A stretch of DNA of 64,000 bases, taken from a virus (taxonomy: Duplodnaviria; Caudoviricetes). Below are positions 24,780 to 41,550 of the stretch, piece by piece (within the stretch, counting starts at the first letter, position 1; every line of letters begins with the position of its first letter). The stretch is from positions 20,953 to 84,952 of IMG/VR virus record IMGVR_UViG_2565956830_000008; one strand, given 5' to 3'. The notes beneath the pieces are model-generated. The model worked only from the letters and a program-made list of their open reading frames with translations, was not told the origin of the DNA and searched no databases. Made by a program: the position numbers and the translations under genes.

Positions 24780-24870
24780 TGAACTACTTCCATTCTTTCC
24801 GAAACAGCTTGCCCTAGCCAGTTAGGGCAAGCTGTTTCAGTAAAAGGACTTCTAAGAAAACCGCAGGTCA
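24780..24870 (-). repeat. ~90 bp intergenic repeat R1 (promoter/hairpin cassette)
   Basis: cattctttccgaaacagcttgccctagccagttagggcaagctgtttcag...ttctaagaaaaccgcaggtca. Confidence 0.92.
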
Positions 24871-25764
24871 GGCGGTCATTTCCGTGAGGAAGGCCAGGGC
24901 TGCGTTCAGGTCGCGCGCGCCCTCCACCGCGATGTCGGGGAACTTGGCGGCCTGGGCGAGCTGCGCTTCGGCGACGATGAACTTGAGGTCGCCGGCGTCG
25001 ATGGCGGCCTGCATGAGGCCGTCGAAGTCGTTGACCGGCAAGACTCGTCCGTCGAGGCCGAGTTGGCCGATCATGACCACGCCTCTGACGGAGCCCGCGG
25101 GGACGTGACCAGATGCGGCGAGCGCTGTACAGGCGAGGGCGAGGTCGGCGGCGGAGCCGCCGCGAGCCGCGGTCCAGCAGGCGGTGACGGTCATGTCGCC
25201 GAGCGGCCACTGGATGCCGCTGTTGACGATGGCCGCGCGAATCCTGTCGCGGGTCTCAAGGGCGTACTTCGGGTTCGGGCCGGTGATCCTCATGGCGTGC
25301 ACTCCCGGCGTGAACTCGGCCTGCACCTTGGCCGGGCCTTCCTGGGTGGGGAAGTAGCTGCTCGCGGTCTTCGGCGGGGTTTTCGGCAGGCGGATCGTGC
25401 GGAGGGGCCGGCCCTGCGGGGCTGCCTTCCAGCCTGCCGCTCCGGCCAGGTTGCCGAAGGGGATCACGTCGCCGAGGGTGCCCTTGACCTCGTCCGTGAT
25501 GCTGTCGGGCAGGCCATGACCCGCGGCGGTCGGGGCGTGCCACAGCACCTTGCCCTTGGCGTCCGCCACCTCGTGCAGCTCCACCTCGCCAGTGTCGAAG
25601 GTGAGCGTTGCGGCTTCGGGCAGGTGCGTGCGGACCAGGTGGGCGACGTACGCGACCGCGCGTGAGTAGAGGGTGCGTCGGGCGACGCTGGCGGCCTGGT
25701 AGGCGTCCTCGAAGGCCTTGGAGTGAACGGCGGTTTCGAGGTCGGTGTGCAGGGTGTCGGCCAT
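24868..25764 (-). CDS. Fusion of phage domain with ChlI/ComM(YifB)-type Lon-like domain, no AAA+ ATPase
   Basis: ETRDRIRAAIVNSG..WP...TV, GSAADLALA, IGQLGLDGRV.PV. Confidence 0.82.
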   Translation of the reverse strand: MADTLHTDLETAVHSKAFEDAYQAASVARRTLYSRAVAYVAHLVRTHLPEAATLTFDTGEVELHEVADAKGKVLWHAPTAAGHGLPDSITDEVKGTLGDVIPFGNLAGAAGWKAAPQGRPLRTIRLPKTPPKTASSYFPTQEGPAKVQAEFTPGVHAMRITGPNPKYALETRDRIRAAIVNSGIQWPLGDMTVTACWTAARGGSAADLALACTALAASGHVPAGSVRGVVMIGQLGLDGRVLPVNDFDGLMQAAIDAGDLKFIVAEAQLAQAAKFPDIAVEGARDLNAALAFLTEMTA

Positions 25765-25797
25765 GGGTCTGTCCTCTCGGTAGGGGTGGGTGTGAGA

Positions 25798-25829
25798 GGG
25801 CCGGGGGACGCTGCCTGTCCCCCGGGCCC
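25798..25829 (-). repeat. Hairpin family H copy 3
   Basis: ccgggggac-gctgcct-gtcccccgg. Confidence 0.85.
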
Positions 25830-25839
25830 GGGGCGTTGG

Positions 25840-26196
25840 TCAGGTGCGGTCGTCCGTCTTGGTGCGCACGGGGAAGCCGGCGAAGGGGAAGGGGTGGGTC
25901 AGCTTCCAGCCGTTGCGGGTGAGGGCCTCGGAGGTCTTGCCGAGGCTGAGGACCTGGTCGAGTACGGCGTGGACCGTGTCGAAGACGTCGTCGGGCAGGT
26001 CGAAATCGTTGAAGCTGACGGGCTGGCCGTCGCTGTCGTAGTAGGAGTCCACGACGCCCTGATCGGTGTCGACGAGGAGCGTGGCGACTGTGGGGAGGTG
26101 ATCGCGAAGGAGATCGCCAATGCGGGCGGAGGCGGCCTCGGTCGCGGCGGTGACGGCCCGGGTCGCGGTCTGGAACTCGGTCTCGAAGCGGTTCAT
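25840..26196 (-). CDS. Hypothetical protein, paralog family
   Basis: Start MNRFETE with GAGGGA RBS; IGDLLRDHLPTVATL. Confidence 0.75.
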   Translation of the reverse strand: MNRFETEFQTATRAVTAATEAASARIGDLLRDHLPTVATLLVDTDQGVVDSYYDSDGQPVSFNDFDLPDDVFDTVHAVLDQVLSLGKTSEALTRNGWKLTHPFPFAGFPVRTKTDDRT

Positions 26197-26230
26197 CTTG
26201 TTCCCTCTTTCAATGCTTGTGGTGGTTTGT

Positions 26231-26320
26231 TGATCTACATTCATTCTTCCAAAATGAGCTTGCCCTAACCAGTTTTGTGAACCCTATTCGGCAAAAGAAC
26301 TTCTAAGAAGCCGCAGGTCA
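26231..26320 (-). repeat. Repeat R2
   Basis: tcattcttcc...cttgccctaaccagtttt...aaaagaacttctaagaagccgcaggtca. Confidence 0.9.
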
Positions 26321-28042
26321 GGCGGCCAGCTCGTATCGGCTGATCGGCTCGCCCGTGATGGCTTCGACCAGCGCGCAGTACAGGACCTCAGCCACGGCCG
26401 GGGTCACCGCGTTGCCGAGCTGGCGGACCTGGTGCCGCTTCGAGCCCATGAGCTTGTACTTCGCCCTGAAGGCCATCGCCCTCGCGATCTCGTGGGGCTG
26501 GAGCATCCTGAACAGCACGTCGTCGATCTTGAAGTCGCGGCGGACCAGTGCGTACCGGTCGCGGGTGGGGAGCGCGCCGATCGGGTCGGTGACCGGCCGG
26601 GCCTGGCCGTTGCCGTAGTACGGGACGAGCAGGTGGTCAGGCTGGGTCACGAGCCCGTGATGGTTGCCGCCGGCCGTGACCGAGTGAAGCGGCATGCCGA
26701 GGTGCCGCGCCTTCTCCTTGTCGCCGCCGCCCCGCATGGGGATCACGAACGGCAGGTAGGCGAGGGCGGTCTCCAGGCGGGCCGTCTGGGTGCGCAGCGG
26801 GTCCTCCAGCCGCATGGGCTTCTTGCCGTCGCGGCCCTCGCACGGAATCAACAGCGGCGGGAACACGATGCCGTCGGTCTCCACGGTCGTCCGGGTGGGC
26901 ATCGGCAGGTCCAGGCCGATGGCCTTCTCCCGCCAGGTCCCGCCGGCCGGGACGAGGAGCGGGCCGCCCGGCATCCCCTGGGGTGCCTCGTCGACGTCGC
27001 CAAAGAGCGAGCCCTGCCCGTCGTCGAAGAAGTCCTCACCCCAGCCCCAATACTTGGCGCCTCCGGCCCGCACGCGGGCGATCGTGGCGGGGGCGAGGCC
27101 CTCGGGGCAGTCGTCGGTCTTGGACCGGTCGCCGATCGGCGTTCCCGCGATCGAGAAGTCGATGGCGGCCGCGGCGGGGAGCACGTAGGGCTCGACGATC
27201 GCGCGGCAGCCCGAGCGCGGGCAACGGAAGTCGTAGCTCTGCCGGTAGCGACCCATGTCCCGCTTCGGGTCGCGGAAGACCTGGACGGCGCGCACCTGTT
27301 CGTCGCAGTCGGCGCACCAGGCGTCGGGGCGCAGGACCCACTTGTCGAAGTCGGGGTCGCGGCCGAGGCTCTCGTGCCAGTACACGAAGTACAGGCGGTC
27401 ACGGCTTTGCGGTACACGGTCCAGGGTGCGCGGGACGACGTGCATCGAGTTGATCGCGAGGAGCTTCGTCCGGTACCCAAGCTTGTGGAACTCGCCGACC
27501 CACCGATCCCATTGGTCCCAGCCCCGGCAGTCTGTGACGTTCTCGACGACTCCGGCCAGGACCAAGCCGCCGCGGTTGATCACGCCCCGCAAATACATGG
27601 GGACTTCTTCCATGAGGGCGCGGCTGCGCTCCTCGGCGGCCCGGCGTTCCTTGTCGCTCTTGAACTCCGGCTCTTCGAAGTCGAAATCGCCCTGCATCGT
27701 GCGGTCGAAGTCGACCTTCACGCCCCGGGCCGCCGACCACTTCGGGCACTCCGGCGACGCCCAGAAGAGCTGGCAGACCGGCCACTTCTCGACCGGGGCC
27801 CGGCGGATGTCGCCCTTCCACAGGTCGCAGTTCGGGTTGTTCCACGCGTGCGTGGCGAGTGCGACGTCCCAGTGGTTCGCGCCTCTGGTGGTCAGCACGC
27901 CGGGGACCGCGTCCGCTCCCTGCGTGTCGCCGCCAGCACCGCAGAACCAGCTCATGGCGGTCAGCACGCTGCCGTCGTGCTTGTAGGCGCGGGCCGGACT
28001 GGCGGATGCCCAGGCGCGCGTGGTGGCGTCGATGTAGGGCAT
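26318..28042 (-). CDS. C5-cytosine DNA methyltransferase
   Basis: FCGAGG (I), SPEC (IV), VENV (VI), QSRDR (VIII), QLGNAV (X). Confidence 0.93.
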   Translation of the reverse strand: MPYIDATTRAWASASPARAYKHDGSVLTAMSWFCGAGGDTQGADAVPGVLTTRGANHWDVALATHAWNNPNCDLWKGDIRRAPVEKWPVCQLFWASPECPKWSAARGVKVDFDRTMQGDFDFEEPEFKSDKERRAAEERSRALMEEVPMYLRGVINRGGLVLAGVVENVTDCRGWDQWDRWVGEFHKLGYRTKLLAINSMHVVPRTLDRVPQSRDRLYFVYWHESLGRDPDFDKWVLRPDAWCADCDEQVRAVQVFRDPKRDMGRYRQSYDFRCPRSGCRAIVEPYVLPAAAAIDFSIAGTPIGDRSKTDDCPEGLAPATIARVRAGGAKYWGWGEDFFDDGQGSLFGDVDEAPQGMPGGPLLVPAGGTWREKAIGLDLPMPTRTTVETDGIVFPPLLIPCEGRDGKKPMRLEDPLRTQTARLETALAYLPFVIPMRGGGDKEKARHLGMPLHSVTAGGNHHGLVTQPDHLLVPYYGNGQARPVTDPIGALPTRDRYALVRRDFKIDDVLFRMLQPHEIARAMAFRAKYKLMGSKRHQVRQLGNAVTPAVAEVLYCALVEAITGEPISRYELAA

Positions 28043-28074
28043 GGGTGTGCTCCTTGCTGTGTGCTGGGGGGAGG

Positions 28075-28836
28075 TCAGAGGGAGGGCTGCGCGTCCGACT
28101 CGGACCAGCGGAGGAAGCGGCCGGTGCGGATGAAGTGGGCGCGGCTCTCAACGGATTCGAGGTCGTACTCGCCCCACACGCCCTGCTTGGGATCGCAGCC
28201 GCAGTCGCACGGCTTCTTCTCCAGCTGGTTGTCGCGGTTCAGCAGGCAGCCGGTGCACTCGAACTCGTGCCAGTCCATGACGGAGCCGCAGGCGCACCGC
28301 CAGGAGGCGAAGTGCCACGTCCATTCCCAGCCGCCGATGCCGTACAGGCCTTCGGCGTTGGGCTCGATGACGTCGGCCGCGTCCTCGTCCTCGGTGGTCT
28401 CCTCCACGTACATCCAGCGGATGTGCAGGACGACGGCCCGGGGCTCGCCCTCGCCGTCGGGTGCGATGGACTCCGGCTGCTCGCCGATGACCAGGTCGCT
28501 GCTGACTGCGGCCTTGGCGCCTTCGTTCAGCTGCTGCCAGCGGATGCGGACGACGACTGCTCGCGGCTCGTGCTCGCTGTCGGTGCCGCCCTCTATGACG
28601 TGGACGCTGGCGGCGCTGTCGGCGCGGCCGTCGATGACGTGGATGGTGTCAACGCTGTCGTGCCCGTACTCGTCGGCCATCTCGATCGTGCGGGCGGCGA
28701 GCTGGCGGGAGGTGTCGAGGGTGAAGTACGGGCTCAGCCAGCCGTTCCACCGGTTGCTGGGGTCGAGCTTGCAGTCATACGGGCCGAGGGTGTCGTCGAT
28801 GCAGACGCGGGTCTCGATCATCTGACGGTCGCTCAT
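28075..28836 (-). CDS. Hypothetical protein with internal duplication and Cys-rich tail
   Basis: Start MSDRQM; EPRAVV..IRW occurs twice; RWNGW..P.F and LYGIGGWEWTW motifs. Confidence 0.75.
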   Translation of the reverse strand: MSDRQMIETRVCIDDTLGPYDCKLDPSNRWNGWLSPYFTLDTSRQLAARTIEMADEYGHDSVDTIHVIDGRADSAASVHVIEGGTDSEHEPRAVVVRIRWQQLNEGAKAAVSSDLVIGEQPESIAPDGEGEPRAVVLHIRWMYVEETTEDEDAADVIEPNAEGLYGIGGWEWTWHFASWRCACGSVMDWHEFECTGCLLNRDNQLEKKPCDCGCDPKQGVWGEYDLESVESRAHFIRTGRFLRWSESDAQPSL

Positions 28837-28916
28837 GGTTCGGTCACTCCATCCGGGCATGGGTGACGGGCGGGACGCGGTGCGTCCCGCCCGTCGAAAA
28901 GGGCTGGTCAGGTGAG

Positions 28917-29336
28917 TTAGAAGAGGGAGGGCGGCGCGGCCTTCGGCTGGGCGCCGAGCTCGGGGATCTCCTCGCCGGTCTGCTCCAGCCACCACTTCGC
29001 GAAGTGCAGCCGGTGGCACCAGGCATCTGCCGGGCGCAGCTTGTCGAGGCGGTCGAAGCAGAGCAGCACCAGGCGGGCGCCGCCGTTCCGCGCGACCAGG
29101 CCGGCCAGCTCGGCGTAGATGCGGTCGATGCCGTGGGCGTTCAGGAGGCGCCGGTAGCTGAACTCGTACGCGTCTTCGGGCAGGTTCTGGGCGAGCAGCT
29201 CGCGGGTCGGCGTGATGAGCGTGGCCTGGCCGACCAGCTGGTAGCCGAGCGGGAAGCGCGGGTGGCCCGCAGTGGTGCGGATCGGAGCGCCCATGTCGGG
29301 CGTGAACTCCTGGTAGGTGCAGGTGGCTAGTTCCAT
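28917..29336 (-). CDS. DUF488-like protein
   Basis: LVLLCFD...WCHR..FA.W. Confidence 0.65.
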   Translation of the reverse strand: MELATCTYQEFTPDMGAPIRTTAGHPRFPLGYQLVGQATLITPTRELLAQNLPEDAYEFSYRRLLNAHGIDRIYAELAGLVARNGGARLVLLCFDRLDKLRPADAWCHRLHFAKWWLEQTGEEIPELGAQPKAAPPSLF

Positions 29337-29403
29337 TCCCGTCCTTTCCGGGTGTGGGTTGGTGGTGGAGTAGGGGGCCGCCTGGGCGGCCCCCTACGGG
29401 GTG

Positions 29404-29631
29404 TCAGCCGTTGCAGATGCAGGTCTCGCGATTGAAGGGCTCGGTGCCGTAGAGCCGGTTCGAGAGCCGCATGATCTTGCTGAAGAGCTGGCAGAGGTCC
29501 GCGTTTTCGTCCTGCCTCTCTTGGGTGGCGAGGGTGTTGCGGAGCCAGGGGAGGATCAGGGCCATTTCCTCTCGGGTGAGGACGAAGAGATCCCCGTTGT
29601 TGATCTTCTGAGTGATGTCCGCGTTTTCCAT
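29404..29631 (-). CDS. Hypothetical protein
   Basis: 75 aa, first gene after repeat R3. Confidence 0.65.
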   Translation of the reverse strand: MENADITQKINNGDLFVLTREEMALILPWLRNTLATQERQDENADLCQLFSKIMRLSNRLYGTEPFNRETCICNG

Positions 29632-29659
29632 GGCCCTGCCCTTTCCTGGGGGTGGTTTG

Positions 29660-29749
29660 TGGCGCTCCTCTCATTCTTTCCGAATCAGCTCAACCTAGCC
29701 AGTTTTGATAACCTGATTAGGCAAAGAAGGGCAAAAGAAGCACTGGTCA
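29660..29749 (-). repeat. Repeat R3 (diverged)
   Basis: tcattctttccgaatcagctcaacctagccagttttgataacctgattagg...ggtca. Confidence 0.85.
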
Positions 29750-30574
29750 GGTGAGGGCGAACAGGTCGAGCTGCCGGGGCTGCCGCTGCCACCAGCCGTG
29801 GGTGGGGAGCGGCCCGCCGGACTCGGCGTCGACGACCAGGAGGACCGTGCGCACGCTCGTTCCGGACGGCGCGAACGACTCGTCGGGCAGCGGGGCGAAC
29901 GTGCCCTCGGCGAGGGCGATCAGCTCGCGGAACTCGACCGTGGCGCGGTCGCTGTGCCACATCACCGACTCGGGCAGGACCGCGACGAGCGTGCCGCCGT
30001 CGTCGAGGAAGCCCATCGCGTGCTTCACGTGCTGCACGGCCGCCGCGAACGGCGGGTTCATCAGCACCCGGCGGTAGCCATGGGGGCAGTCGAGCGGGTC
30101 CAGGTCGAGAAAGTCCGCCTCGACCACGCGACGGGCGGCGCCCTGCTCACGGAGGACGCGGACCCGCCGCTCGTCGATCTCGACGCAGTCGACGACCCCG
30201 CCGCACTCGACGGCCGGCCCCACGATCGAGCCGGTACCAGCCGACGGCTCCAGGACGCTCATGCCCTCGCGGACGCCCGCGTGCGCCAGCATGTCGTCGA
30301 CCACGCGCGGCGGTGTCGGGTACCAGCCCTGTTCGAGCCGGCTGGGGAACTCGCGGGTGGCGAGGCACGCCCGCATGTACTCCTCCACCGGGAACGGGAA
30401 GACGTGGGCGCGCACCGCTTTGCGGCCGTCCCACCGTCCGCCGATCTCCTTCAGGATCTTGTTCACCTGCTCGTACGTGGGGCGGTCCAGGTCGAACGGG
30501 ATCTGCACCCGGTCGTCGGCGATGACCGTACGGGCGTCGGTGAGGACGTCGTAGACGCCGCTTGGGATCTCCAT
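29747..30574 (-). CDS. Amino (N6-adenine-type) DNA methyltransferase
   Basis: YPTP, LEPSAGTG (I), VEID, MNPPF (IV). Confidence 0.9.
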   Translation of the reverse strand: MEIPSGVYDVLTDARTVIADDRVQIPFDLDRPTYEQVNKILKEIGGRWDGRKAVRAHVFPFPVEEYMRACLATREFPSRLEQGWYPTPPRVVDDMLAHAGVREGMSVLEPSAGTGSIVGPAVECGGVVDCVEIDERRVRVLREQGAARRVVEADFLDLDPLDCPHGYRRVLMNPPFAAAVQHVKHAMGFLDDGGTLVAVLPESVMWHSDRATVEFRELIALAEGTFAPLPDESFAPSGTSVRTVLLVVDAESGGPLPTHGWWQRQPRQLDLFALT

Positions 30575-30624
30575 CGGTCTCCTCCTGGAGGGATAGGGGT
30601 CTGGCTGCGTGAACGGGGCTTAGA

Positions 30625-32165: not shown

Positions 32166-32196
32166 AGCGCGTCCAATCGCTAGATGTGGGGTGGTT

Positions 32197-32287
32197 TGAA
32201 CTACTTTCATTCTTTCCGAATCAACTTGCCCTAGCCAGTTTTAACAAGCTGATTCAGCAAAAGAACTTCTAAGAAAACCGCAGGTCA
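32197..32287 (-). repeat. Repeat R4
   Basis: tgaactactttcattctttccgaatcaacttgccctagccagttttaacaagctgattcagcaaaagaacttctaagaaaaccgcaggtca. Confidence 0.92.
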
Positions 32288-32782
32288 GCAGCCACATTCG
32301 CCGCTCGCGGCGGGCACCTGGAAGCACTTCGTGCAGGTGTTAGCGCGGACTGCAGCGGCCTTCACCTCGTTGCGGGCCCGGCCGCGCTCGCGGTTCACGA
32401 ACTCGACCTTCCCGTTGTAGTCGCTCACGCGCTCCTCGAACCGCTGCTGTGCGACCCACTCCTGGGCGCTGCGCTCGCGGCGCTCCGCAGGCGCCATCGC
32501 GGCGTCGGCCGCCAGGGCGGCGCGCAGGCCGGCCTCCACGTCGGCGAGCTGGTCGGCGAACAGCCCCCAGTCGACCGTCGGCCGGGCGGCTGCGGCGATC
32601 CGGCCCGCGACCGCACGGAGCACGTTCCGGTCGAGTACGTCGCGCGTCACGGCCCGGCGGACGTCGATCGCCCAGGCGGTGTCGCCCTGGCCGACCAGGC
32701 GCCGAGAGAGGTCGAGCACGTCGCCGGCCTCGCCGATCTCGGCAATCAGCTCGATCTCCTCGATGATGCTCGCGACGTTCAC
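32285..32782 (-). CDS. Hypothetical protein with C-terminal CxxC...C-C motif
   Basis: Single gene between R4 and R5; CTKCFQVPAASGECGC. Confidence 0.78.
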   Translation of the reverse strand: MNVASIIEEIELIAEIGEAGDVLDLSRRLVGQGDTAWAIDVRRAVTRDVLDRNVLRAVAGRIAAAARPTVDWGLFADQLADVEAGLRAALAADAAMAPAERRERSAQEWVAQQRFEERVSDYNGKVEFVNRERGRARNEVKAAAVRANTCTKCFQVPAASGECGC

Positions 32783-32817
32783 TGCGCTCTCCTCTGGCCG
32801 TAGCTTGTGGGATGGTT

Positions 32818-32907
32818 TGAACTACTTTCATTCTGTCCGAAATGGCTTGCCCTAGCCAGTTTTGACAAGCCAATTCGGCAAAGGAACTTCTAAGAAACCC
32901 CAGGTCA
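32818..32907 (-). repeat. Repeat R5
   Basis: Same consensus; arms ccgaaatggcttg/caagccaattcgg. Confidence 0.92.
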
Positions 32908-34655: not shown

Positions 34656-34687
34656 TTCGCTGCCTTTCGCGGCTTGTTGGTGCGTTT

Positions 34688-34778
34688 TGAACTACTTTCA
34701 TTCTTTCCTAAATGATTTTCCCTAGCCAGTTTTAACAATCTAATTCAGCAAAAGAACTTCTAAGAAACCAGCAGGTCA
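34688..34778 (-). repeat. Repeat R6
   Basis: Same consensus, weaker hairpin. Confidence 0.9.
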
Positions 34779-34783
34779 GAGGC

Positions 34784-35016: not shown

Positions 35017-36540
35017 TCAGACGGCGAGCTGCTGGGGGGCGCGGCGCGCGCGCTCAGCGGCGACGATCACCGCTGCGCGGGGCTCGTAGCAGGAGACGCA
35101 GAGGGACTCGTACCGCGGCTTCCTGCGCGTGCCTGTGTTCAGGCAGCGGGTCCGCTCGTGCCGCGGGGCGTTGCACTCGGTGTCGGTGCAGGCCGCCTTG
35201 CGGGGCTCCTGGTAGCCGATCGCCCGGTGGTGGTGCGCCTGCCAGGCCTCGAAGTCCATCGGCGAGAACCAGCCGTCGGTGTCGGCCAGGCCGTCGGACA
35301 CGTACCTGCCGTACGCGGCGCGCTCCTCGGCTTCGTCGCAGACATGGCCGGCCGCAGGCCAAGTGCCCGCCACGGCGGGGCTCGCCCCGAACAGGTCGAG
35401 CTGCTCGGGGGCCTCCGTGTTCGCGTCCAGCGGCGGCAGCTCCTCCGGCGGGTTGCAGCGCACCGACGGCAGCTCGGGCCTTGGCTGCGGATTCGCGGCG
35501 TCGGCGCGGAGCTCGGCGACCACGTCCGGGGCGAGGTGGTGTTCCGCGATCTCCTCCTCGGTGGGCACCCATCCGGCGGGCCGACGCCGGCCGAGGCGGT
35601 AGGTCATGCCCTGCACCCCCGCCCACACATCCGACAGCCGCTCGTCCCGCTCCTCCCACGCATGCAGCTCGTCCAGGACGGCGTAGAACCTGTCCCGGTC
35701 CGCGCGCCGCCGTGCTTCCTCCTCGCGGAGGGCTTTGGCACGCCGTACGGCTTCCTCGCCACCGATGAGCGGCTGGAGCCGGTCGAACAGCTCCTCCTTG
35801 CGGTTCTTGGGGACCGGCTTCGGCTGTACCCGCTTCCAGACCGTGACCGCGCGACGGCCGTCCGCAGTGACGTTCACGGGTCGCCGTCCGAGAACGTCGA
35901 GGGCGCCCACGACGACGAACCCGGCCTGCACGAGCGGCTTGAGGCGGTAGTCGGCGAGGCGCTGGCCAGCGCGCCCAGGCACGGGGACGTGCCGCAGCGA
36001 GCCGTCCGGGTCGATGCGGAGCTGGCCGGCCGCCGCACTGACCGCAAGCTCGGCCTGGCCCGGCGACCAGCCGAGGGCGAACGCCTGCGCTTCCTGGAGG
36101 CGCCGCTCCTTAGGGTCGAGGTCCTGCGGCGCGGCCGGGGTCGGCGGCGCGGCGACCGGCGGGGCGGCATCTTCGACCGGTTCCGGCTGCGCCGCTTCCT
36201 CGAGGACCGCCGGTGCGGCGGGCGGCGTCTCGCGGATGCGCTCGCCGGGCCCGTTGGAGACGTCGACCCAGGGCCGCGGTTTGTCGTCGCAGTACCGGAT
36301 GGACACGCGGACCGCCCAGCCGCCGTCTTCGCTGACCCAGCGCTCGACGTCGTCGGCGTGCTCGGCGATCGTCTCGTCGGCGTGCTGGGTGAGGGTTACG
36401 ACGTACGTGCAGATGCGCTCACCGTTGCGGTACTCGCCGGTGACGCGGAAGTCGCCGCCCCTCCCTTGGTCCAGGCCGAGGCGGCGAAGGGCTCGCGCGA
36501 TAGCGACGCTCGGGCTTGTGGCGGTGGACTGTGTGGCCAT
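35017..36540 (-). CDS. Hypothetical multi-domain protein (507 aa)
   Basis: Start MATQST with AGGAG RBS; C-terminal Cys/His motif; QLDLF. Confidence 0.75.
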   Translation of the reverse strand: MATQSTATSPSVAIARALRRLGLDQGRGGDFRVTGEYRNGERICTYVVTLTQHADETIAEHADDVERWVSEDGGWAVRVSIRYCDDKPRPWVDVSNGPGERIRETPPAAPAVLEEAAQPEPVEDAAPPVAAPPTPAAPQDLDPKERRLQEAQAFALGWSPGQAELAVSAAAGQLRIDPDGSLRHVPVPGRAGQRLADYRLKPLVQAGFVVVGALDVLGRRPVNVTADGRRAVTVWKRVQPKPVPKNRKEELFDRLQPLIGGEEAVRRAKALREEEARRRADRDRFYAVLDELHAWEERDERLSDVWAGVQGMTYRLGRRRPAGWVPTEEEIAEHHLAPDVVAELRADAANPQPRPELPSVRCNPPEELPPLDANTEAPEQLDLFGASPAVAGTWPAAGHVCDEAEERAAYGRYVSDGLADTDGWFSPMDFEAWQAHHHRAIGYQEPRKAACTDTECNAPRHERTRCLNTGTRRKPRYESLCVSCYEPRAAVIVAAERARRAPQQLAV

Positions 36541-36596
36541 CGGTCTTCTCCTCTCGGGAAGGTGACCGGCGGGGCCGGAGCCCCGCCGGGTGGTGG

Positions 36597-36881
36597 TCAG
36601 ATGCGGGCGGCGGCCAGAGCGGCGTCGACGATGCCGATCGTCTGACCCCAGGTGGCTTCGACGTCGGTGAGCTCGGTGCCGCCGTAGCCCTCGCTGCCGG
36701 TGATCCGCGCCCTGGTCGGCGTGGCCTGGCCGGCCTCGTCGGTGCCCATGCCGGGCAGGAGGACCGTCCAGGTCTGACCCTCGTGATTGACCTCGGTGAC
36801 CTTGCCGAGGTTCGTCTGAATCCACGTGGTGGAGGTGGCTGCGGCGGCGAACACGGCGGTGGTGGTGGTGGTGGCGTCCAT
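36597..36881 (-). CDS. Hypothetical protein (94 aa)
   Basis: First gene after R7, GGGAG RBS. Confidence 0.7.
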   Translation of the reverse strand: MDATTTTTAVFAAAATSTTWIQTNLGKVTEVNHEGQTWTVLLPGMGTDEAGQATPTRARITGSEGYGGTELTDVEATWGQTIGIVDAALAAARI

Positions 36882-36915
36882 GGCGGGCTCCCGTTCTCTG
36901 CTGGTTGGTGTGTTT

Positions 36916-37005
36916 TGAACTATTTTCATTCTTTCCGAAACGACTTGCCCTAGCCAGTTTTAACAAGCCGTTTCGGCAAAAGAACTTCTAAGAAACCGCA
37001 GGTCA
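36916..37005 (-). repeat. Repeat R7
   Basis: Same consensus; arms ccgaaacgacttg/caagccgtttcgg. Confidence 0.92.
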
Positions 37006-37024
37006 GGAGCCCATCAGGCGGTCG

Positions 37025-37216
37025 TCAGGCAGTGCGCCTCATGTCGATTTCCGGCCGCCGCAGCTCTTCGGTGACCTCCTCGACGGTCGGTCCGCCCTGC
37101 CAGGTGAGGGACGGCCTCACGTCCTGCGGCTCGCGCAGCACCCACCCGGCGTCCGGCCAGATCAGCCGCACCCGGTACAGGATCCGGTCGAGGGGCACCG
37201 GGCCCTTCGCGGTCAC
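37025..37216 (-). CDS. Hypothetical protein (63 aa)
   Basis: GTGA overlap with upstream stop. Confidence 0.5.
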   Translation of the reverse strand: MTAKGPVPLDRILYRVRLIWPDAGWVLREPQDVRPSLTWQGGPTVEEVTEELRRPEIDMRRTA

Positions 37217-37740
37217 TGGCCGAGCTCCGCATGACCGTTGAGGCCCGCCAGCCTGCGGACCATCGGCCAGGCGTCGGCCTCGTACTTGCTCACGACCCCG
37301 TCCACGTGGCCGTGCCGGTCCGGCAGGGCGTCGCCGTCCGCGTCGACGTGGCCGGTCACGGCCTCCTCGTACTCGTGGACCAGTTCGGCGGCCTGGTCCG
37401 CGAGGTCGTCGAGGTCGCGCTGCCGCTGATACTCGGTCCGCAGGTCGCTCCAGTGGATTCCCCGCTCGCCGTCCGGCAGGCCCTCGTGGGACTCGTCGGC
37501 GATGACGTAGCAGTCGATCGTCTCGTCGGCCACCATGTGCCAGGCGAGGGCCTTCACCCAGGCCTTCTCGGTGGAGCACTCGTCGACCACGTACGTGGTG
37601 GGCCGCGTGCCGTCGTAGCGCTCGGGTCCGGCGACGGTGACGGTGAACGGCCGAACGGTCTGCCGGTAGTCGAGGGGCAGGTTGCCGTACACGGGCTCGC
37701 CGCCGAAGCGCTCGGGGGTCTGGATGTCGTGCTGGCTCAT
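37213..37740 (-). CDS. Hypothetical protein
   Basis: 175 aa, protein-like composition. Confidence 0.75.
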   Translation of the reverse strand: MSQHDIQTPERFGGEPVYGNLPLDYRQTVRPFTVTVAGPERYDGTRPTTYVVDECSTEKAWVKALAWHMVADETIDCYVIADESHEGLPDGERGIHWSDLRTEYQRQRDLDDLADQAAELVHEYEEAVTGHVDADGDALPDRHGHVDGVVSKYEADAWPMVRRLAGLNGHAELGQ

Positions 37741-37768
37741 GCTCGTCGTCCTGTTCTGTGCGAGGTGG

Positions 37769-38650
37769 TCAGTCTGCGAGGTGCGCGCGGAGTGCTTCGC
37801 CGGCGGCCCTCACGCGCTCGGCGGTCCAGCCGGACCCGGACAGGGTCAGCCGGGCCCGCTCGTTCCTCGGACCGTCGACGGCGACGATCTTCACGCTCAT
37901 CGTCGCCACGTCGACGCCGAACCAGAGGTCGCCGACGGCCGGAGGCGTCATCTCCCGCGCCTGCCGCCAGTGGACCGGCACCCGTTCCTCGTCGGCGCCG
38001 TCCGGGCCGGGACATGCTTGGGAGATCGCGTTCAGCAGCTCGTCGCCGTGCGCGCAGTCGCCGTGGTGGTGGAGGAGGGCGACCCCGGTCCTGGCCACTC
38101 GGAAGGCGTGCCGGGTGAACGACGGCCAGGTCTTCGTGACGATGGAGCAGCCCCAGGCGGGGACGCGGGCTGTGCGTTCCAGCCAGAAGCCCTCACCGTG
38201 CTCGTCGATGTACGGGCGGCCGAGGTCCCAGCCGCGCACGCGGGCCATGGCGTCCCAGCCCAGTGGCGGCCGGTTGCGGTAGTCGCGGTCGTCGGGGCCG
38301 GTCGTCAGCCACAGGCGCCAGCCGTCCGGGCCGGTGAACATCGTGTCGGCCGCGAAGACCGGCTCGATGCGGACCAGGACCCGGGGGACGTTCACCGGAA
38401 TGACGGTCCACTGCTCGTCGACGGCCTGTCGCACCGGGCAGTCGTTGCAGTCACCGCGGTTGACGCAGGGCCCGAACCCTCCCCAGCGGGCCCGCCGGGT
38501 GTCGTGGGACTCCAGCAGCGACCCCCAGCGTCGGGGCCGCAGGGCGCACTGATTCGGCAGGCCGAAGTGAGCGTTGAGGCTCAGCCTGTTCCACCCCTTC
38601 CCGTCCGGTCCGCCGGCCGGGGCCTCGGGTGCACGCAGGAAGATCGGCAT
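37769..38650 (-). CDS. Hypothetical protein (293 aa, Cys/His-containing)
   Basis: Start MPIFLR, adjacent to upstream stop. Confidence 0.7.
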   Translation of the reverse strand: MPIFLRAPEAPAGGPDGKGWNRLSLNAHFGLPNQCALRPRRWGSLLESHDTRRARWGGFGPCVNRGDCNDCPVRQAVDEQWTVIPVNVPRVLVRIEPVFAADTMFTGPDGWRLWLTTGPDDRDYRNRPPLGWDAMARVRGWDLGRPYIDEHGEGFWLERTARVPAWGCSIVTKTWPSFTRHAFRVARTGVALLHHHGDCAHGDELLNAISQACPGPDGADEERVPVHWRQAREMTPPAVGDLWFGVDVATMSVKIVAVDGPRNERARLTLSGSGWTAERVRAAGEALRAHLAD

Positions 38651-38651
38651 C

Positions 38652-39302
38652 TCAGCTCTCTCCCTCTTCCCGGCTGAAGCGGCTGGCGTTCGCGACGAGC
38701 CAGCAGGCGAGGGACAGAGCGGTGGTCGCGCACTCCTCGGTGAGCGGCAGGCCCGGCCGCGCGACGAACAGCTCGTTGACGTACTCGCCGTCGGCCGCGT
38801 ACAGGGACGCCGCCCACGGCTCGTCGTGCTGCTCGGCGGGCCGACCCGCGTCCTCGCCGGAGTGCAGGAACACTCTGGGCCCGGTGTGGGCGGCGCCCTC
38901 GTCGGCTGTGCGGTTGGCGGCGACCAGGACGTAGGAGACCCCCCTGTCCTCGACGTAGAACGAGGGGATCCCGAACGTGGACAGGGCGGCGCGCAGCATC
39001 CCGCCCTCGGTGGGGCCGCCGGTGACTGCGGCGTCGATCGCCGCCTGGAACATGGCATCCAGCCCGGTGGTGAGACCGGCCGAGAAGAACACGGCCCGCA
39101 GCCCGTCCTCGTCATAGCCGGTGAGCGTGCGCATCACCCGCTCTGTGGTCTCCAGGTGGGCGGGGCACGTGGCGAGGCCCAGTCCGCTCGTGGCTTCGAC
39201 AGAGATGACGGCCTTGCCGTTGCTGCCGAGGATCTCGCAGGCGACGCACGGCATCTGCCACCAGCTCGGGAAGCTGTGCACGCGGGTATCGAACGTGATC
39301 AT
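38652..39302 (-). CDS. Hypothetical protein
   Basis: 216 aa, AGGAG RBS, N-terminal CxxC...CxxH. Confidence 0.75.
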   Translation of the reverse strand: MITFDTRVHSFPSWWQMPCVACEILGSNGKAVISVEATSGLGLATCPAHLETTERVMRTLTGYDEDGLRAVFFSAGLTTGLDAMFQAAIDAAVTGGPTEGGMLRAALSTFGIPSFYVEDRGVSYVLVAANRTADEGAAHTGPRVFLHSGEDAGRPAEQHDEPWAASLYAADGEYVNELFVARPGLPLTEECATTALSLACWLVANASRFSREEGES

Positions 39303-39331
39303 GCGGGGTCTCCTGTGTGGGTGCGGGCCGG

Positions 39332-39859
39332 TCAGAGCGTGGCGAGGTCGGCGGGCGCCTTGCCGCGGTTGCAGGGCCGGTTGTTGTCGACGGCGACGGC
39401 AGCGGCCAGGCGCTCGTGCTTGCGGTGCAGGGCGATCAGCCCGGTGAGGGCCGCGTTCAGGACCTCGTCGTCGCGGGAGTTGAGGTGCCCGTGCTCGATC
39501 AGGGCGATCCGGCGGGCGCGCAGGTCAGCGTCCTCGCGGGCGAGCTGCATGCTGACCGCGTTGAGCGGCTGCATCGTCGGCGTCTCGCCGGTGACCGGCG
39601 CGGTGGCGTAGCCGACGATCACCGCCGGGGTCATGAAGTCGTTCTGCGTGAGCAGCTCGGCCGCCTCGCGCAGGGCGTCCACGGCGGGCTGAGGGAGCTG
39701 GCCGGGCTCGTCGACCGGGTACGACTGGATGGCGATCGCGGCGTCCTCGATGGCCCCGGCGAGCGTCTCGATCATGTAGCGCTGCGGGTGGTGGGCCCTG
39801 CCGCGTACGACGGCGGCGAGGTGGTTGAGGCGGCGGGCGGTGGCGAGGTAGGCGGACAT
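39332..39859 (-). CDS. Hypothetical protein
   Basis: 175 aa, AAGGAG RBS. Confidence 0.75.
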   Translation of the reverse strand: MSAYLATARRLNHLAAVVRGRAHHPQRYMIETLAGAIEDAAIAIQSYPVDEPGQLPQPAVDALREAAELLTQNDFMTPAVIVGYATAPVTGETPTMQPLNAVSMQLAREDADLRARRIALIEHGHLNSRDDEVLNAALTGLIALHRKHERLAAAVAVDNNRPCNRGKAPADLATL

Positions 39860-39878
39860 CGGTGTGTCTCCTTCGTGA

Positions 39879-40220
39879 TCAGGCGGCGGCCACGTACTGC
39901 GCGGCCACGGCGTGGTAGCAGCGGACGGAGCGCAGGCCGGCCGGGCAGTTGCACTGGCCGGTGGCGGCGGTCCGGTAGACCTCCGTGCCGTCGTCGGCGA
40001 CGACGAGGAAGATCCGGTTCTGGCGGAGCGGGATGACGGCGCCGAGCTCCAGGAGTTCGAGGGCCTTGGCGACCTGCCATTTCGGGCTGGCCGTGTCGGT
40101 CCGCGCGTTGCGGCGGACCTTCAGGCGGCACTTCGGGCCGTAGCCGTCGGGCGACGGCTTGCGGAGCGGGCGGCGGCACTTCAGGCACCTGCCGTGCTCG
40201 GTGGCCTTCTTTGCGCGCAT
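39879..40220 (-). CDS. Zn-finger protein (DUF6011-like + SWIM-like)
   Basis: C..C.R.L......GYGP.C and CNCPA....CYH. Confidence 0.75.
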   Translation of the reverse strand: MRAKKATEHGRCLKCRRPLRKPSPDGYGPKCRLKVRRNARTDTASPKWQVAKALELLELGAVIPLRQNRIFLVVADDGTEVYRTAATGQCNCPAGLRSVRCYHAVAAQYVAAA

Positions 40221-40250
40221 GTCCCGCTCCCGTCTCGGTTGGTGGTGGTT

Positions 40251-40341
40251 TGAACTACTTTCATTCTTTCCAAATCGACTTGCCCTATCCAGTTTTAACA
40301 AGTCAATTCATTAAAGGTGGCGCAAAGAAAACCGCAGGTCA
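40251..40341 (-). repeat. Repeat R8
   Basis: Same consensus; arms aaatcgacttg/caagtcaattc. Confidence 0.9.
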
Positions 40342-40361
40342 CAGGCCTGCGGCTCCCTCGG

Positions 40362-40703
40362 CTACTGGTCGGCGGGCCGGGTGCACTCGTCATGTCGGTC
40401 GCAGTTGCAGCGCCCGCATGCGGCGCACATCTGGTCGGCTTCCAGCCCGCAGGCACCGCACCCTCCCGTCAGCTCCAGTTCGAGGTCGTCGAGGAAGATC
40501 TGCCGGTCGATCGCGGCTTGCTGGTGCGTCGTGCGGCGAAAGCGGCGGACAACGGTCCAGAACTCGTCCGGCGCGTTCGTGTGCTGGTCCTCGGCGAGGT
40601 AGGAGGCGGCAGCGCTCACGTCGCACCACTCGTGCGGGTCCACGCCGCACGCGGACAACGCCCGCTCGATCTCGCCTTTGAAGGTCTCGAAGCTCTGCGT
40701 CAC
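40362..40703 (-). CDS. Hypothetical protein with Cys-rich C-terminus
   Basis: 113 aa; CGAC..CAACGRCNC..H..C. Confidence 0.72.
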   Translation of the reverse strand: MTQSFETFKGEIERALSACGVDPHEWCDVSAAASYLAEDQHTNAPDEFWTVVRRFRRTTHQQAAIDRQIFLDDLELELTGGCGACGLEADQMCAACGRCNCDRHDECTRPADQ

Positions 40704-40736
40704 GTTCGCTCGGCCCTTTCGCGTCGTCTGTTCTGG

Positions 40737-41432
40737 TCAGGCGCCCGGGGTGGGAAGGACCCGCTCGACGGTCACGACGTCCCAGGCCGCGTTCGCGACG
40801 GGCACGGCGAACGCCCACTGGCCGCGGTAGGTGCGCCGCTGGTCGTCCTCGGTGGCTCCCTCGACGAGCGCCCACCATTCGCCCTGGCTGGTGGCCGGGT
40901 TGATCCGCACGCCGGTGTCGAGGACGGTCAGGCGGGTGCCGAAGGCGTGCAGGACGTCGGCGGACTCGACGAGCATGCGCGGGGTCTCGAAGGCGACGGG
41001 CAGGCCGGCCGTGATCCGGGCCGTCTGTGCGGCGGACGGGTCGGCGAGTTTGTAGCCCAGCTCGATCGCCACCTGCTCGGCCCGGTCGACGCTGGGGATG
41101 TAGTCGCCCTTGCAGTATTCGCGGGCCGGCTTGCCGAGCTTGCTGTACGCGTGGAAGGCGCCGAACTGCTCGGTGATCGCGACGGGCCATGCGACGACAA
41201 CGAAGCCGACGATGCGCTCGGACTCGACGACCACCACGTTCCCGTCGGCCACGTGCTCCCGGTCGACGGCCGCGCAGACGTCGGCGCTGCTCGCGAAGTG
41301 CCAGACCTTCGGCTTGGCCTCCTTGGCGGCGGCGCGCGCCGTGTCGACGGCTTCGATGAGCTGGCCGAGCTGGAAGGCAGCGGCGGCCTGCGGGTTTCCC
41401 TGGGCCAGGCGCTCCGCGTAGGTCTCACTCAT
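40737..41432 (-). CDS. Hypothetical protein (231 aa)
   Basis: First gene after R9; start MSETYA. Confidence 0.75.
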   Translation of the reverse strand: MSETYAERLAQGNPQAAAAFQLGQLIEAVDTARAAAKEAKPKVWHFASSADVCAAVDREHVADGNVVVVESERIVGFVVVAWPVAITEQFGAFHAYSKLGKPAREYCKGDYIPSVDRAEQVAIELGYKLADPSAAQTARITAGLPVAFETPRMLVESADVLHAFGTRLTVLDTGVRINPATSQGEWWALVEGATEDDQRRTYRGQWAFAVPVANAAWDVVTVERVLPTPGA

Positions 41433-41466
41433 GATCAGGCCCTCTCCTTCTGTCTGGGGCGGTTTG

Positions 41467-41550
41467 TGGTGCTGCTTCCATTCTTTCCAAATCAACTTGC
41501 CCTAGCCAGTTTTCACAACTGTATTCGGTAAAGTGATCGCAAAGGTTGAC
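41467..41550 (-). repeat. Repeat R9 (most upstream; lacks gcaggtca end)
   Basis: ccattctttccaaatcaacttgccctagccagttttcacaa. Confidence 0.88.

Follow-up and report, generated by a model that had tools for sequence, protein, structure and literature searches.

The window (the full 64,000-nucleotide stretch analysed here) carries on its minus strand, between positions 24750 and 41558, nine co-oriented copies of an AT-rich module of about 120 bases. The same array had been proposed by a first-pass annotation, and it is confirmed here: with up to three mismatches, the core AAAACTGGCTAGGG matches the window 10 times, compared with 1.52 matches expected and 0/100 shuffles reaching 10; nine of these matches are the sites named in that annotation, all on the minus strand, and a repeat search of the window returns a single family of nine 93-nt copies at the same positions. 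Across the whole genome (11.76 Mb), a 22-base gapped pattern allowing up to three mismatches finds nine reverse matches, none forward and none with the control, all on the same contig; the nine copies are the only ones in this 11.8 Mb Streptomyces genome, and all lie within the prophage. The closest sequenced relative of the latter is Streptomyces phage TurkishDelight, whose major capsid protein is 81% identical. Nine related prophages contain 7–11 co-oriented copies apiece, and the elements are restricted to this phage lineage.

In most copies, the module begins at its upstream end with a stop codon, next to which lie a small hairpin and a T-run; these are followed by an inverted repeat of 13–15 bp that encloses the conserved core AAACTGGCTAGG. 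AGAAT, which is invariant, lies 17–18 bp past the core, the spacing of −35 and −10 boxes, and behind it come an A/C-rich leader, also conserved, then a Shine-Dalgarno site and finally the start codon. The elements are listed below in minus-strand order, with arm pairing counted on that strand, together with the neighbouring reading frames.

41597..41884, plus strand: divergent 95-aa gene directly upstream of R9, a possible regulator by context only
41433..41545, minus strand: R9, first of the array; left arm 41514–41528, core/loop 41502–41513, right arm 41487–41501, AAGAAT 41480–41485, start codon ATG 41430–41432; without the TGACCTGCGG/T-run part; pairing 11/15
40221..40341, minus strand: R8; TGA 40339–40341, left arm 40297–40311, loop 40285–40296 (AAAACTGGATAG), right arm 40270–40284, AAGAAT 40263–40268, start ATG 40218–40220; pairing 14/15
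36882..37005, minus strand: R7; TGA 37003–37005, left arm 36962–36976, loop 36950–36961, right arm 36935–36949, AAGAAT 36928–36933, start ATG 36879–36881; pairing 15/15
34656..34778, minus strand: R6; TGA 34776–34778, left arm 34734–34748, loop 34722–34733, right arm 34707–34721, AAGAAT 34700–34705, start ATG 34653–34655; weak pairing, 10/15; RNA hairpin −3.5 kcal/mol
32783..32907, minus strand: R5; TGA 32905–32907, left arm 32864–32878, loop 32852–32863, right arm 32837–32851, CAGAAT 32830–32835, start GTG 32780–32782; pairing 14/15
32166..32287, minus strand: R4; TGA 32285–32287, left arm 32243–32257, loop 32231–32242, right arm 32216–32230, AAGAAT 32209–32214, start ATG 32163–32165 of a ParB-like gene; pairing 15/15
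29632..29749, minus strand: R3; TGA 29747–29749, left arm 29707–29721, loop 29695–29706, right arm 29680–29694, AAGAAT 29673–29678, start ATG 29629–29631; pairing 12/15
26197..26320, minus strand: R2; TGA 26318–26320, left arm 26277–26291, loop 26265–26276 (AAAACTGGTTAG), right arm 26250–26264, AAGAAT 26243–26248, start ATG 26194–26196; weak pairing, 10/15
24750..24870, minus strand: R1, last element; TGA 24868–24870, left arm 24826–24840, loop 24814–24825 (CTAACTGGCTAG), right arm 24799–24813, AAGAAT 24792–24797, start ATG 24747–24749; pairing 15/15
32285..32782: ORF ending at the TGA of R4
29747..30574: ORF ending at the TGA of R3
26318..28042: C5-methylase-like ORF ending at the TGA of R2
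24868..25764: ORF ending at the TGA of R1

As these four ORFs indicate, the TGA of R1–R4 is the stop codon of the preceding gene, which is what the first-pass annotation had stated; in R5–R8 the upstream gene stops 6–62 nt before the TGA of the element, and R9, which has no TGA part, has in common with the other copies only the arm–core–AGAAT–leader portion. The small upstream hairpin is most evident in R8, as CCGCAGG/CCTGCGG with TTTTCTTT after it, and a TGACCTG-like motif occurs in 63/90 copies. An intrinsic terminator would call for a stable, GC-rich hairpin and a U-run immediately behind it. The T-run is conserved (mean 4.4 T per 10 nt), with the 3′ end paired in 76/90 folds; the energy of the hairpin is not unusual relative to shuffles (mean z ~0.1 over 90 copies), and a terminator scan did not flag the upstream hairpins on the minus strand.

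The downstream part stands in a fixed relation to start codons. In all nine copies, the start codon has its first base 45–51 nt beyond the G of GAATG, with 40–46 nt in between, within one base of the 41–47 nt given earlier; among 10 prophages, a start codon stands behind 89/90 elements, mostly at 44–51 nt, and 77 of these 89 also have a Shine-Dalgarno-like motif. The invariant columns are AACTGG.TAGG and AGAATG, with 17–18 bp between them, and a right-hand AAAGAA that is conserved as sequence and not as a pair, since its possible left partner varies without compensation. Both arms carry symmetric AA/TT positions that do not vary. AGAAT is replaced by AGGAT in G009, a distant relative, and both forms fit TAG(A/G)(A/G)T, which we take to be a Streptomyces −10 form. 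Changes to the consensus are genome-specific and hit all copies of one genome, as in column 46, which is A in 10/10 copies of prophage G003.

The divergent gene keeps its position and orientation in seven prophages and precedes the first element in the window and six relatives (seven regions), across a gap of 165 bp; because R9 lies behind it, the downstream unit needs a promoter of its own within this gap. An AlphaFold2 model of the 95-aa protein (mean pLDDT 72) consists of one long and two short helices, and its sequence and model gave no Pfam, PHROG or significant Foldseek match. Among the genes of the window, none was recognised as a sigma factor, an RNA polymerase (including the giant virion type), a recombinase or an integrase, and no activator was identified. 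RecE-, RecT- and RuvC-like genes are present in the phage at 58–62 kb.

Pairing and covariation of the inverted repeat

The arms are complementary in R1, R3, R4, R5, R7 and R8 and pair weakly in R2, R6 and R9, in agreement with the first-pass annotation, R3 being intermediate; in R1 the stem reaches into the loop (−32 kcal/mol as RNA). It had also been noticed that G-T mismatches in R1, R4, R7 and R8 pair on the minus strand, and this is true in the window, where the minus/plus counts are 15/14, 15/11, 15/12 and 14/9, respectively. That signal comes for the most part from the two ends of the stem, where three near-constant Y:G positions stay paired on the sense strand only and are the sole one-sided positions; at the variable stem positions of 100 copies, there are 68 G:T and 69 A:C mismatches.

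Eight of the 15 pairs have changed on both sides, and the arms covary in the correct register, as the first-pass annotation had anticipated. The covariation score is 0.235, compared with 0.175 in shuffles (0/500 reach it) and 0.04–0.10 with the partner slid; 70 cells are changed on both sides versus 33 in shuffles, none of 500 reaching 70; and sliding the partner out of register reduces pairing from 84% to 37–57%. By mutual information, eight predicted pairs rank 1, 5, 10, 18, 25, 39, 42 and 81 among 826 long-range pairs (p = 3e-10). These values support a covariation of the arms beyond what subfamily structure explains, and covariation is also seen within a genome at pair 22–53 (T:A vs A:T).

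Folded as RNA, the sense hairpin has a mean energy of −14.8 kcal/mol (z −3.1) versus −11.7 kcal/mol (z −2.5) for the antisense one and is the more stable of the two in 78/100 copies, whereas DNA parameters give z ~ −2.9 on both strands. At the variable pairs, 20–34% of cells are unpaired; RNAalifold, run on 71 copies, does not return the arm–arm helix but another six-pair structure (−1.5 kcal/mol). Of the earlier idea of selection on a single-stranded structure, the register-true covariation stands, but the balance of G:T and A:C, the RNAalifold result and the only partial compensation in the left arm of genome-wide switches in the right arm speak against it; given the first two, the data argue little for a strand-specific structure. 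A plain promoter would need neither the register-specific covariation nor the stabler sense hairpin, which leaves room for an RNA role.

Cassette content and breakpoints among related prophages

The content of the cassettes varies among the 10 prophages, with cassette synteny largely kept. Based on rough gene calls, 29/180 alignment endpoints fall in element zones, corresponding to 22 per kb versus 6 per kb within genes (p = 4e-5), but other gene junctions have 30 per kb; 12 endpoints coincide with the exact edges of an element, as five starts at −46/−45 and seven ends at +56/+57. The suggestion that synteny breaks at the repeats is in part matched by these edge-exact endpoints, whereas a special recombination hotspot is not established, because breakpoint density at the elements does not exceed that of other gene junctions. 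Copies are 0.794 identical within a genome, 0.800 between orthologous positions of different genomes and 0.767 between non-orthologous ones, a pattern that would agree with exchange among copies.

A candidate promoter module and competing explanations

The layout of the element (stop, T-run, promoter-like core, −10-like box and leader, co-oriented and gene-proximal) fits the portable promoter or processing unit suggested by the first-pass annotation, and from it we infer promoter activity and the position of the transcription start. We consider it about an even bet (probability roughly 0.5) that the element is a repeated, regulated, non-canonical promoter cassette acting like the promoter-early stem-loops (PeSLs) of T4 or the extended start-associated sequences (ESAS) of Cluster K phages. 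In the early/accessory arm of this temperate Streptomyces phage, one transcription unit would begin at each copy, the upstream unit being closed by the TGA stop, the short hairpin ending in CCTGCGG and the T-run. The promoter itself would be weak and of a non-canonical sigma-70 type, with the cTGGCTa core at the −35 position and, 17–18 bp downstream, the invariant nAGAAT, preceded by GG, in the −10 position; a conserved, unstructured A/C-rich leader of ~40 nt would then lead to the Shine-Dalgarno site and start codon. The 13–15 bp inverted repeat, which spans the −35-position core and fills the spacer, may be a control site that turns the nine units on or off jointly, either by binding a phage regulator or as a structure. 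Finally, the ~100 bp of sequence common to the copies would make homologous recombination between them possible, and cassettes may be swapped, added or deleted in this manner.

A sigma-70-type (HrdB-like) promoter has a −35 hexamer akin to TTGACA and, 16–18 bp further on, a −10 hexamer akin to TATAAT/TAGAAT, with transcription beginning 5–9 nt past the latter. The proposed spacing agrees with this, nAGAAT standing 18 bp after cTGGCT or 17 bp after TGGCTA, but the boxes match the consensus at only ~8/12 positions, the first −10 position being A or C and not T; a simple sigma-70 scan of 24000–42500, with a threshold of 9/12 and at least 4 per hexamer, reports no promoters. Neither the arm motif nor the core motif recurs in the vicinity of the Cro-like immunity region, and the elements are therefore not demonstrably tied to the prophage repressor.

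Some of these features would also suit an RNA element in a long polycistronic transcript, a tentative alternative that we regard as rather unlikely. Here the sense RNA would form a hairpin with a conserved loop that is processed by an RNase III- or RNase E-type enzyme or by a nuclease of the phage, stabilises an RNA end, or is bound by an RNA-binding or antitermination factor; the message would be cut or tuned at cassette boundaries, much as in the early region of T7, and the AGAAT–leader block would be a translation-initiation region instead of containing a −10 box. The covariation in register, the stabler sense hairpin and the stem-end Y:G positions that pair on the sense strand only all point this way, but selection on RNA should favour G:U, which is no more frequent than A:C, and both the absence of the arm helix from the RNAalifold output and the unpaired cells at variable pairs weigh against it. 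Rfam 15, at gathering score, has no match across the window, upstream of the first element there is no gene in the same orientation from which transcription could read through, and the loop, the best conserved part, stands exactly at −35 spacing from AGAAT. Equal numbers of G:T and A:C are instead what a double-stranded site would show, and the elements could be a pure operator array, not promoters, whose inverted repeat and/or asymmetric core binds a silencing phage protein, transcription being silenced or blocked at many intergenic points as with L5 stoperators or phiC31 conserved inverted repeats. That the copies are intergenic, co-oriented and phage-restricted, with symmetric AA/TT positions and genome-wide consensus shifts as expected from co-evolution with a trans-acting protein, agrees with this, as do helix-turn-helix genes nearby at 45191–45553 (plus strand) and 55702–56049 (minus strand). 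We nevertheless find it unlikely: half-sites ~29 bp apart, centre to centre, are unusual for a simple dimer, protein binding does not explain covariation at uncontacted positions such as pair 22–53, the immunity region has no motif copy, the first unit would still require a promoter, and the invariant AGAAT and conserved leader at fixed distance from the start codon would go unexplained.

Complementarity kept without wobble bias, similar DNA folding scores on both strands and cassette content that differs between relatives would be in line with a hairpin formed in single-stranded or extruded DNA, acting as a structured promoter, a priming signal or an integron attC-like recombination site for cassette capture. 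The probability of this is small, considering that a 12–16 nt loop disfavours cruciform extrusion, that the −35-like box is in the loop and the −10-like box outside the hairpin, unlike in Frpo-type promoters, that neither a recombinase nor a giant virion RNA polymerase is seen in the window, and that other gene junctions hold breakpoints at least as densely as the elements do, with cassette synteny largely kept. Equally improbable in our judgement is a hairpin-dependent actinophage promoter, loosely comparable to those of the N4 virion polymerase, whose arms would pair on negatively supercoiled or transiently single-stranded phage DNA and present the core as a single-stranded loop; that the loop, and not a duplex −35 box, would be recognised by RNA polymerase or a phage factor, and that the element would also bound exchangeable cassettes, is likewise a very slim prospect.

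If the promoter-cassette reading is right, nine near-identical, co-regulated modules control ~17 kb of genes (methylase, ParB-like and unknown) in one lineage of large temperate Streptomyces phages. It would explain the swapping of accessory cassettes between related prophages, provide a compact, portable expression and control element for Streptomyces, and offer a natural set of ~100 variants with which the role of the inverted repeat could be dissected.

Relation to known phage systems

In a Frpo-type promoter, a long hairpin of single-stranded DNA restores both boxes, −35 and −10, as double helix within its stem. The analogy drawn to it by the first-pass annotation fails, the −35-position core being in the loop and AGAAT 3′ of the hairpin. 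Integron attC sites are imperfect inverted repeats at the 3′ end of promoterless cassettes, accompanied by an integron integrase and attI; the elements do not fit this, being located 5′ of genes at a fixed start-codon distance, and no integrase was detected in the window. L5-type stoperators of Cluster A mycobacteriophages are stand-alone asymmetric motifs of ~13 bp bound by the immunity repressor; like the elements, they are present in many copies, co-oriented with transcription, in short intergenic gaps, but they have no arms, −10-like box or conserved leader. In intergenic regions of phiC31, Ingham and colleagues (1993/1994) and Wilson and colleagues (1995) reportedly described early promoters that are conserved and operators in the form of conserved inverted repeats (CIRs). 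As in our case, phiC31 is a temperate Streptomyces phage, and many near-identical non-canonical promoters are said to split its early region, accompanied by intergenic inverted repeats. CIRs are 17-bp operators for the immunity repressor, whereas the arms described here are 13–15 bp long, 12–16 nt apart and sequence-variable, and nothing was found that ties them to the immunity region.

PeSLs of T4-type phages are small repeated composites of stem-loop and promoter that, like the elements, lie between non-essential genes of a variable region, and indels or replacements end at these repeats (Arbiol et al. 2010, PMC2839356; Comeau et al. 2014, PMC4122927), which the edge-exact endpoints seen here may parallel. 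PeSLs have strong canonical sigma-70 early promoters with effective terminators and occur in lytic T4-like myoviruses (PMC2839356, PMC4122927); the elements, by contrast, have non-canonical boxes, a weak upstream hairpin, a temperate actinophage host and an extra covarying inverted repeat around the −35-position core. The composite layout behind the T4-type analogy of the first-pass annotation is present, but its promoter boxes are non-canonical and its hairpin is weak, and the elements are not classed as PeSLs.

Cluster K mycobacteriophages carry start-associated sequences (SAS) and ESAS; the SAS is a 13-bp motif, GGGATAGGAGCCC, 3–8 bp before the start codon and overlapping the ribosome-binding region, and about half of the sites are preceded by imperfect inverted repeats of 17 bp, the spacer of which varies (Pope et al. 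2011, PMC3203893). Both systems belong to actinophages and combine an asymmetric, conserved, co-oriented motif close to start codons with one better conserved arm and a consensus that differs by sub-lineage (PMC3203893). The core of the elements is, however, ~80 nt upstream, within the repeat loop, with a −10-like box in between; since motif and distances differ and the sequences are unrelated, the architecture is analogous only (PMC3203893). Punctuation of phage gene cassettes is already known in other forms, and this would be a Streptomyces case, joining a short list made up of T4 PeSLs, Cluster K ESAS and phiC31 early promoters; it would form a new category only if the hairpin proves mechanistically required.

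TurkishDelight (NC_073473), on which a literature search found no paper, lacks the core AAACTGGCTAGG but contains, in the part of its genome syntenic to the array, eight modules that recur between genes and consist of a canonical TTGAC(A/T), 17 nt and a (C)AGTAT-like box. These modules occupy the same genome region as the elements and are likewise co-oriented and ahead of start codons (by 60–90 nt in TurkishDelight); they differ in having GC-rich hairpins before and after the box and no arm–core–arm structure. The first of them follows a reverse-oriented gene annotated as helix-turn-helix, the counterpart of which in the window has no identified fold or family. The protein encoded downstream of R7 is homologous to that of TurkishDelight gene 112, itself preceded by the repeated promoter of that phage.

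The repeated element and its carriers

Searching the window with the core of the element at up to three mismatches returned 10 matches against 1.5 expected, nine of which coincide with the sites proposed in the first-pass annotation, all on the minus strand; a repeat search of the window likewise yielded a single nine-copy family, consisting of the same elements. Genome-wide, a gapped 22-base pattern (up to three mismatches) gave nine reverse, no forward and no control matches. Aligned on the minus strand, the copies are conserved over about 100 bases, TGACCTGCGG-TTT(T)CTTAGAAGTTCTTTT-[G/A]CC GAAnnnGCTTGTT-AAAACTGGCTAG-GGCAAGnnnnTTCGG-AAAGAATGAAAGTAGTTCAAAACACACCAAC, followed 3' by a variable stretch that includes a Shine-Dalgarno site and then by the start codon. 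As the annotation had it, GAATG lies at a near-fixed distance from this codon (45-51 nt, measured from its G to the codon's first base), and the TGA of the element is the stop codon of the upstream gene in R1-R4 only, R1 being the last and R9 the first copy of the array. Rfam contained no match for the element.

The upstream part, made of TGACCTGCGG and the T-run, resembles a small terminator, most clearly in R8. Among 90 copies, 63 have a TGACCTG-like motif and 76 fold with their 3' end paired. Its hairpin energy is not better than that of shuffles (z ~0.1), a terminator scan flagged none of the upstream parts on the minus strand, and the part is terminator-like only. A second repeated kind, probably terminator hairpins, is a GC-rich palindrome of 31 nt, GAGGCCGGGGAACGCTGCCTGTTCCCCGGCC, whose three copies are 84-100% alike and lie in short gaps separating minus-strand genes:

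23281-23311: GAGGCCGGGGAACGCTGCCTGTTCCCCGGCC copy
23694-23724: GAGGCCGGGGAACGCTGCCTGTTCCCCGGCC copy
25797-25827: GAGGCCGGGGAACGCTGCCTGTTCCCCGGCC copy

Beyond the window, a pattern of conserved columns matched 47 times at 42 loci on nine contigs of eight named Streptomyces assemblies, as well as 17 times in IMG/VR, in four proviruses of 88-99 kb; together with the window, these sources provided 71 distinct copies. Relaxing the pattern gave 7-11 copies in each of five of the genomes and of the four proviruses, all co-oriented and spread over ~20-25 kb in each, with no control matches. A search of viral contigs for the AGRATG-leader motif returned 33 loci, with more than one copy per contig only in the four proviruses above; single matches in other viral contigs may be chance.

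Covariation between the arms

The arms had been described as differing between copies while staying complementary in R1, R3, R4, R5, R7 and R8, with weak pairing in R2, R6 and R9. Pairing is complete in R1, R4 and R7 (15/15 each), nearly so in R5 and R8 (14/15) and less extensive in R3 (12/15) and in R2, R6 and R9 (10-11/15), in agreement with that description. Over the 71 copies, the 15-pair helix (alignment columns 18-33 with 46-60) is paired in 86.6% of cells, and eight of its pairs have changed on both sides. Doubly changed cells number 70, a count that none of 500 column shuffles attained (33 in shuffles). The covariation score, 0.235, falls to 0.175 with shuffling and to 0.04-0.10 with the partner displaced by 1-3 columns. 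Because shuffles ignore relatedness, corrected mutual information was also computed for all variable columns of 100 copies, comprising 70 of the 71 (one with an insertion was dropped) and 30 relaxed copies. Among 826 long-range pairs, the eight predicted pairs open to testing take ranks 1, 5, 10, 18, 25, 39, 42 and 81 (Mann-Whitney p=3e-10), and the anti-diagonal cell of the left-arm by right-arm matrix is the maximum in six of eight rows; arm complementarity is thus maintained, not merely inherited, and the covariation is in register.

The two arms do not move in full step. In the genomes of two related prophages, G003 and G009, column 46 of the right arm is A in 10 of 10 and five of eight copies, whereas its left partner is T in only four and one, respectively, so that the right arm changes in concert genome-wide and the left arm follows partly only. 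All 10 copies of G003 (L073/L074) also have GGTAAAGC instead of GGGCAAGC directly after the core, a replacement throughout the genome's copies that suggests concerted evolution or co-evolution with a trans factor. The arm data are compatible alike with selection for pairing, with a symmetric protein site co-evolving with its protein, or with template-switch correction of a quasi-palindrome. Inspection of the sequence on both strands revealed no U-run after the arm hairpin, which was accordingly rejected as a terminator.

A proposed promoter cassette and its alternatives

Judged from sequence features, the element would best be explained as a repeated, regulated, non-canonical promoter cassette, a reading to which we assign a probability of about one half. 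Its invariant blocks AACTGG.TAGG and AGAATG lie 17-18 bp apart, which is -35/-10 spacing, and the -10-like box is preceded by GG; in G009 AGGAT takes the place of AGAAT. The AAAGAA block is also invariant, and since its possible left partner varies without compensation it is conserved as sequence; an outer TTCTTT/AAAGAA helix lengthening the stem, although 77% paired, was discarded as a conserved pairing for the same reason. In seven regions (the window and six relatives) the first element comes immediately after an oppositely oriented gene, so that readthrough from upstream cannot reach its unit, and R9, the first copy in the window, has only the arm-core-AGAAT-leader part in common with the others. 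Against a promoter, the boxes agree with consensus at only ~8 of 12 positions; a simple promoter scan found none in the element region, and the window showed no gene for a sigma factor or polymerase. Sequencing runs listed as matching window 24000-33900 numbered six, all of DNA with small shares and none of RNA. Other placements (TAAAAC with an upstream TG, TAGGGC, TTAGAA and an ECF-like AAC) were dismissed on the alignment by eye, as key positions vary or the spacing fails.

That the hairpin acts instead at the RNA level, in processing or stability, is a tentative alternative. In 78 of 100 copies the hairpin is more stable on the sense than on the antisense strand (-14.8 versus -11.7 kcal/mol; z -3.1 versus -2.5), which speaks for a sense-strand RNA structure; DNA parameters give z ~-2.9 for both strands. 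Against such a structure, G:T and A:C mismatches are equally frequent at variable stem positions (68 and 69), 14-24 of 71 copies are unpaired at the variable pairs, and RNAalifold did not recover the arm-arm helix. The overall excess of G:T (181 versus 52 over all 15 pairs) comes from the ends of the stem, where three Y:G positions are near-constant. An element working as single-stranded DNA is very improbable; the defining features of an Frpo-type promoter or an attC site are lacking. A pure operator array also appears improbable, albeit less so. Two genes lie upstream of the array:

41597-41884 (+): conserved 95-aa protein gene, divergent from the first element in seven prophages
45191-45553 (+): reverse-oriented HTH regulator gene; shares 59% identity with TurkishDelight gene 91 over 83 aa

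The AlphaFold2 model of the 95-aa protein, a possible regulator, has a pLDDT of 72 and consists of one long and two short helices; the protein gave no Foldseek match at E <=0.001 (best E 3.4) and no Pfam or PHROG family.

Among known systems, the promoter-early stem-loops (PeSLs) of T4-type phages are closest to the element in function and the start-associated sequences (SAS/ESAS) of Cluster K mycobacteriophages in form, while phiC31, with its early promoters and conserved inverted repeat (CIR) operators, offers a further comparison. By analogy, the promoter cassette would work like PeSLs and SAS/ESAS, although it is without the defining features of either. SAS/ESAS motifs are co-oriented, lie close to start codons, have imperfect inverted repeats of 17 bp and no known function (PMC3203893); in Cluster O phages a 17-bp dyad repeat occurs in over 30 copies (PMC4351075). 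No account of the element was found in the literature on early promoters (Streptomyces phages, phiC31), conserved inverted repeats (Streptomyces phages) and intergenic repeats (actinobacteriophages), most subscription journals lying outside the search.

Possible exchange of units and the surrounding prophage

Gene content between elements, based on rough gene calls, is largely syntenic across 10 prophages and differs in places: a single-gene unit (cluster 19) is present in five regions and absent from five, and middle units are reordered. Alignments of at least 300 nt between the window and nine relatives have 180 endpoints: 29 in element zones, a density of 22 per kb, against 57 (30 per kb) at other gene junctions and 94 (6 per kb) in the remaining sequence. 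Endpoint density at the elements thus does not exceed that at ordinary gene boundaries, and of the earlier interpretation as a portable promoter unit and recombination hotspot, the promoter-cassette layout is supported and a special hotspot is not. What speaks for exchange is that 12 endpoints sit on element edges, with five alignment starts at -46/-45 and seven ends at +56/+57, the pattern expected if neighbouring cassettes are replaced through the shared repeat. Copy identity is 0.794 within genomes, 0.800 between orthologous copies of different genomes and 0.767 for non-orthologous pairs; the G003 copies, at 0.81 within the genome versus ~0.74 with others, are clearly homogenised.

The window (G000:C119:72082-136081, in a genome of 11.76 Mb) is a piece of a prophage, with ~70% G+C and nearly all genes on the minus strand:

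1668-3656 and 3653-6361 (-): adjacent paralogous large proteins of 662 and 902 aa, both phrog_18824, with many internal repeats (spacing 180-2552 nt)
7701-9344: major capsid protein (PHROG match)
9857-13615: portal/MuF/protease fusion (PHROG match)
13811-15559: portal (PHROG match)
17202-18794: terminase large subunit (PHROG match)
21992-22066 (-): tRNA-Gly (anticodon TCC), within the prophage, between terminase and accessory region
55702-56049 (-): HTH protein gene
58-62.4 kb: RecE-like exonuclease, RecT-like, RuvC-like and Cro-like HTH genes (matches)

Near-identical DNA in the phage collection amounted to four short matches (54-76 bp, 4 records). The closest sequenced phage is TurkishDelight (NC_073473), a temperate Streptomyces phage of 93.6 kb on which the literature search found no paper; the capsid proteins of the two share 81% identity over 77% of the query, and a group of ~57 kb Streptomyces phages comes next at ~53%. 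The core was not found in TurkishDelight, which in the same part of its genome carries about eight repeated intergenic modules, each with a canonical promoter, TTGAC(A/T) - 17 nt - (C)AGTAT-like box, flanked by GC-rich hairpins, a parallel that counts among the points for the promoter reading:

L082 24477-36788 (record positions ~74.5-86.8 kb): TurkishDelight module family

The first module comes after a reverse-oriented HTH gene, and another precedes gene 112, a homologue of the protein encoded after R7 (42% over 363 aa). Two modules lie inside the annotated starts of coding sequences, of genes 106 and 112/113, whose start codons have thus probably been placed too far upstream. Behind R7 itself, a frame at 35017-36966 (-) is open for ~650 codons, and its start is overlapped by another frame of high GC3 (36597-36929); the locus may hold one long gene or two. 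At 63824-63883 (+), a 30-bp unit occurs as a tandem duplicate with 97% identity, in an ORF that runs past the end of the window.
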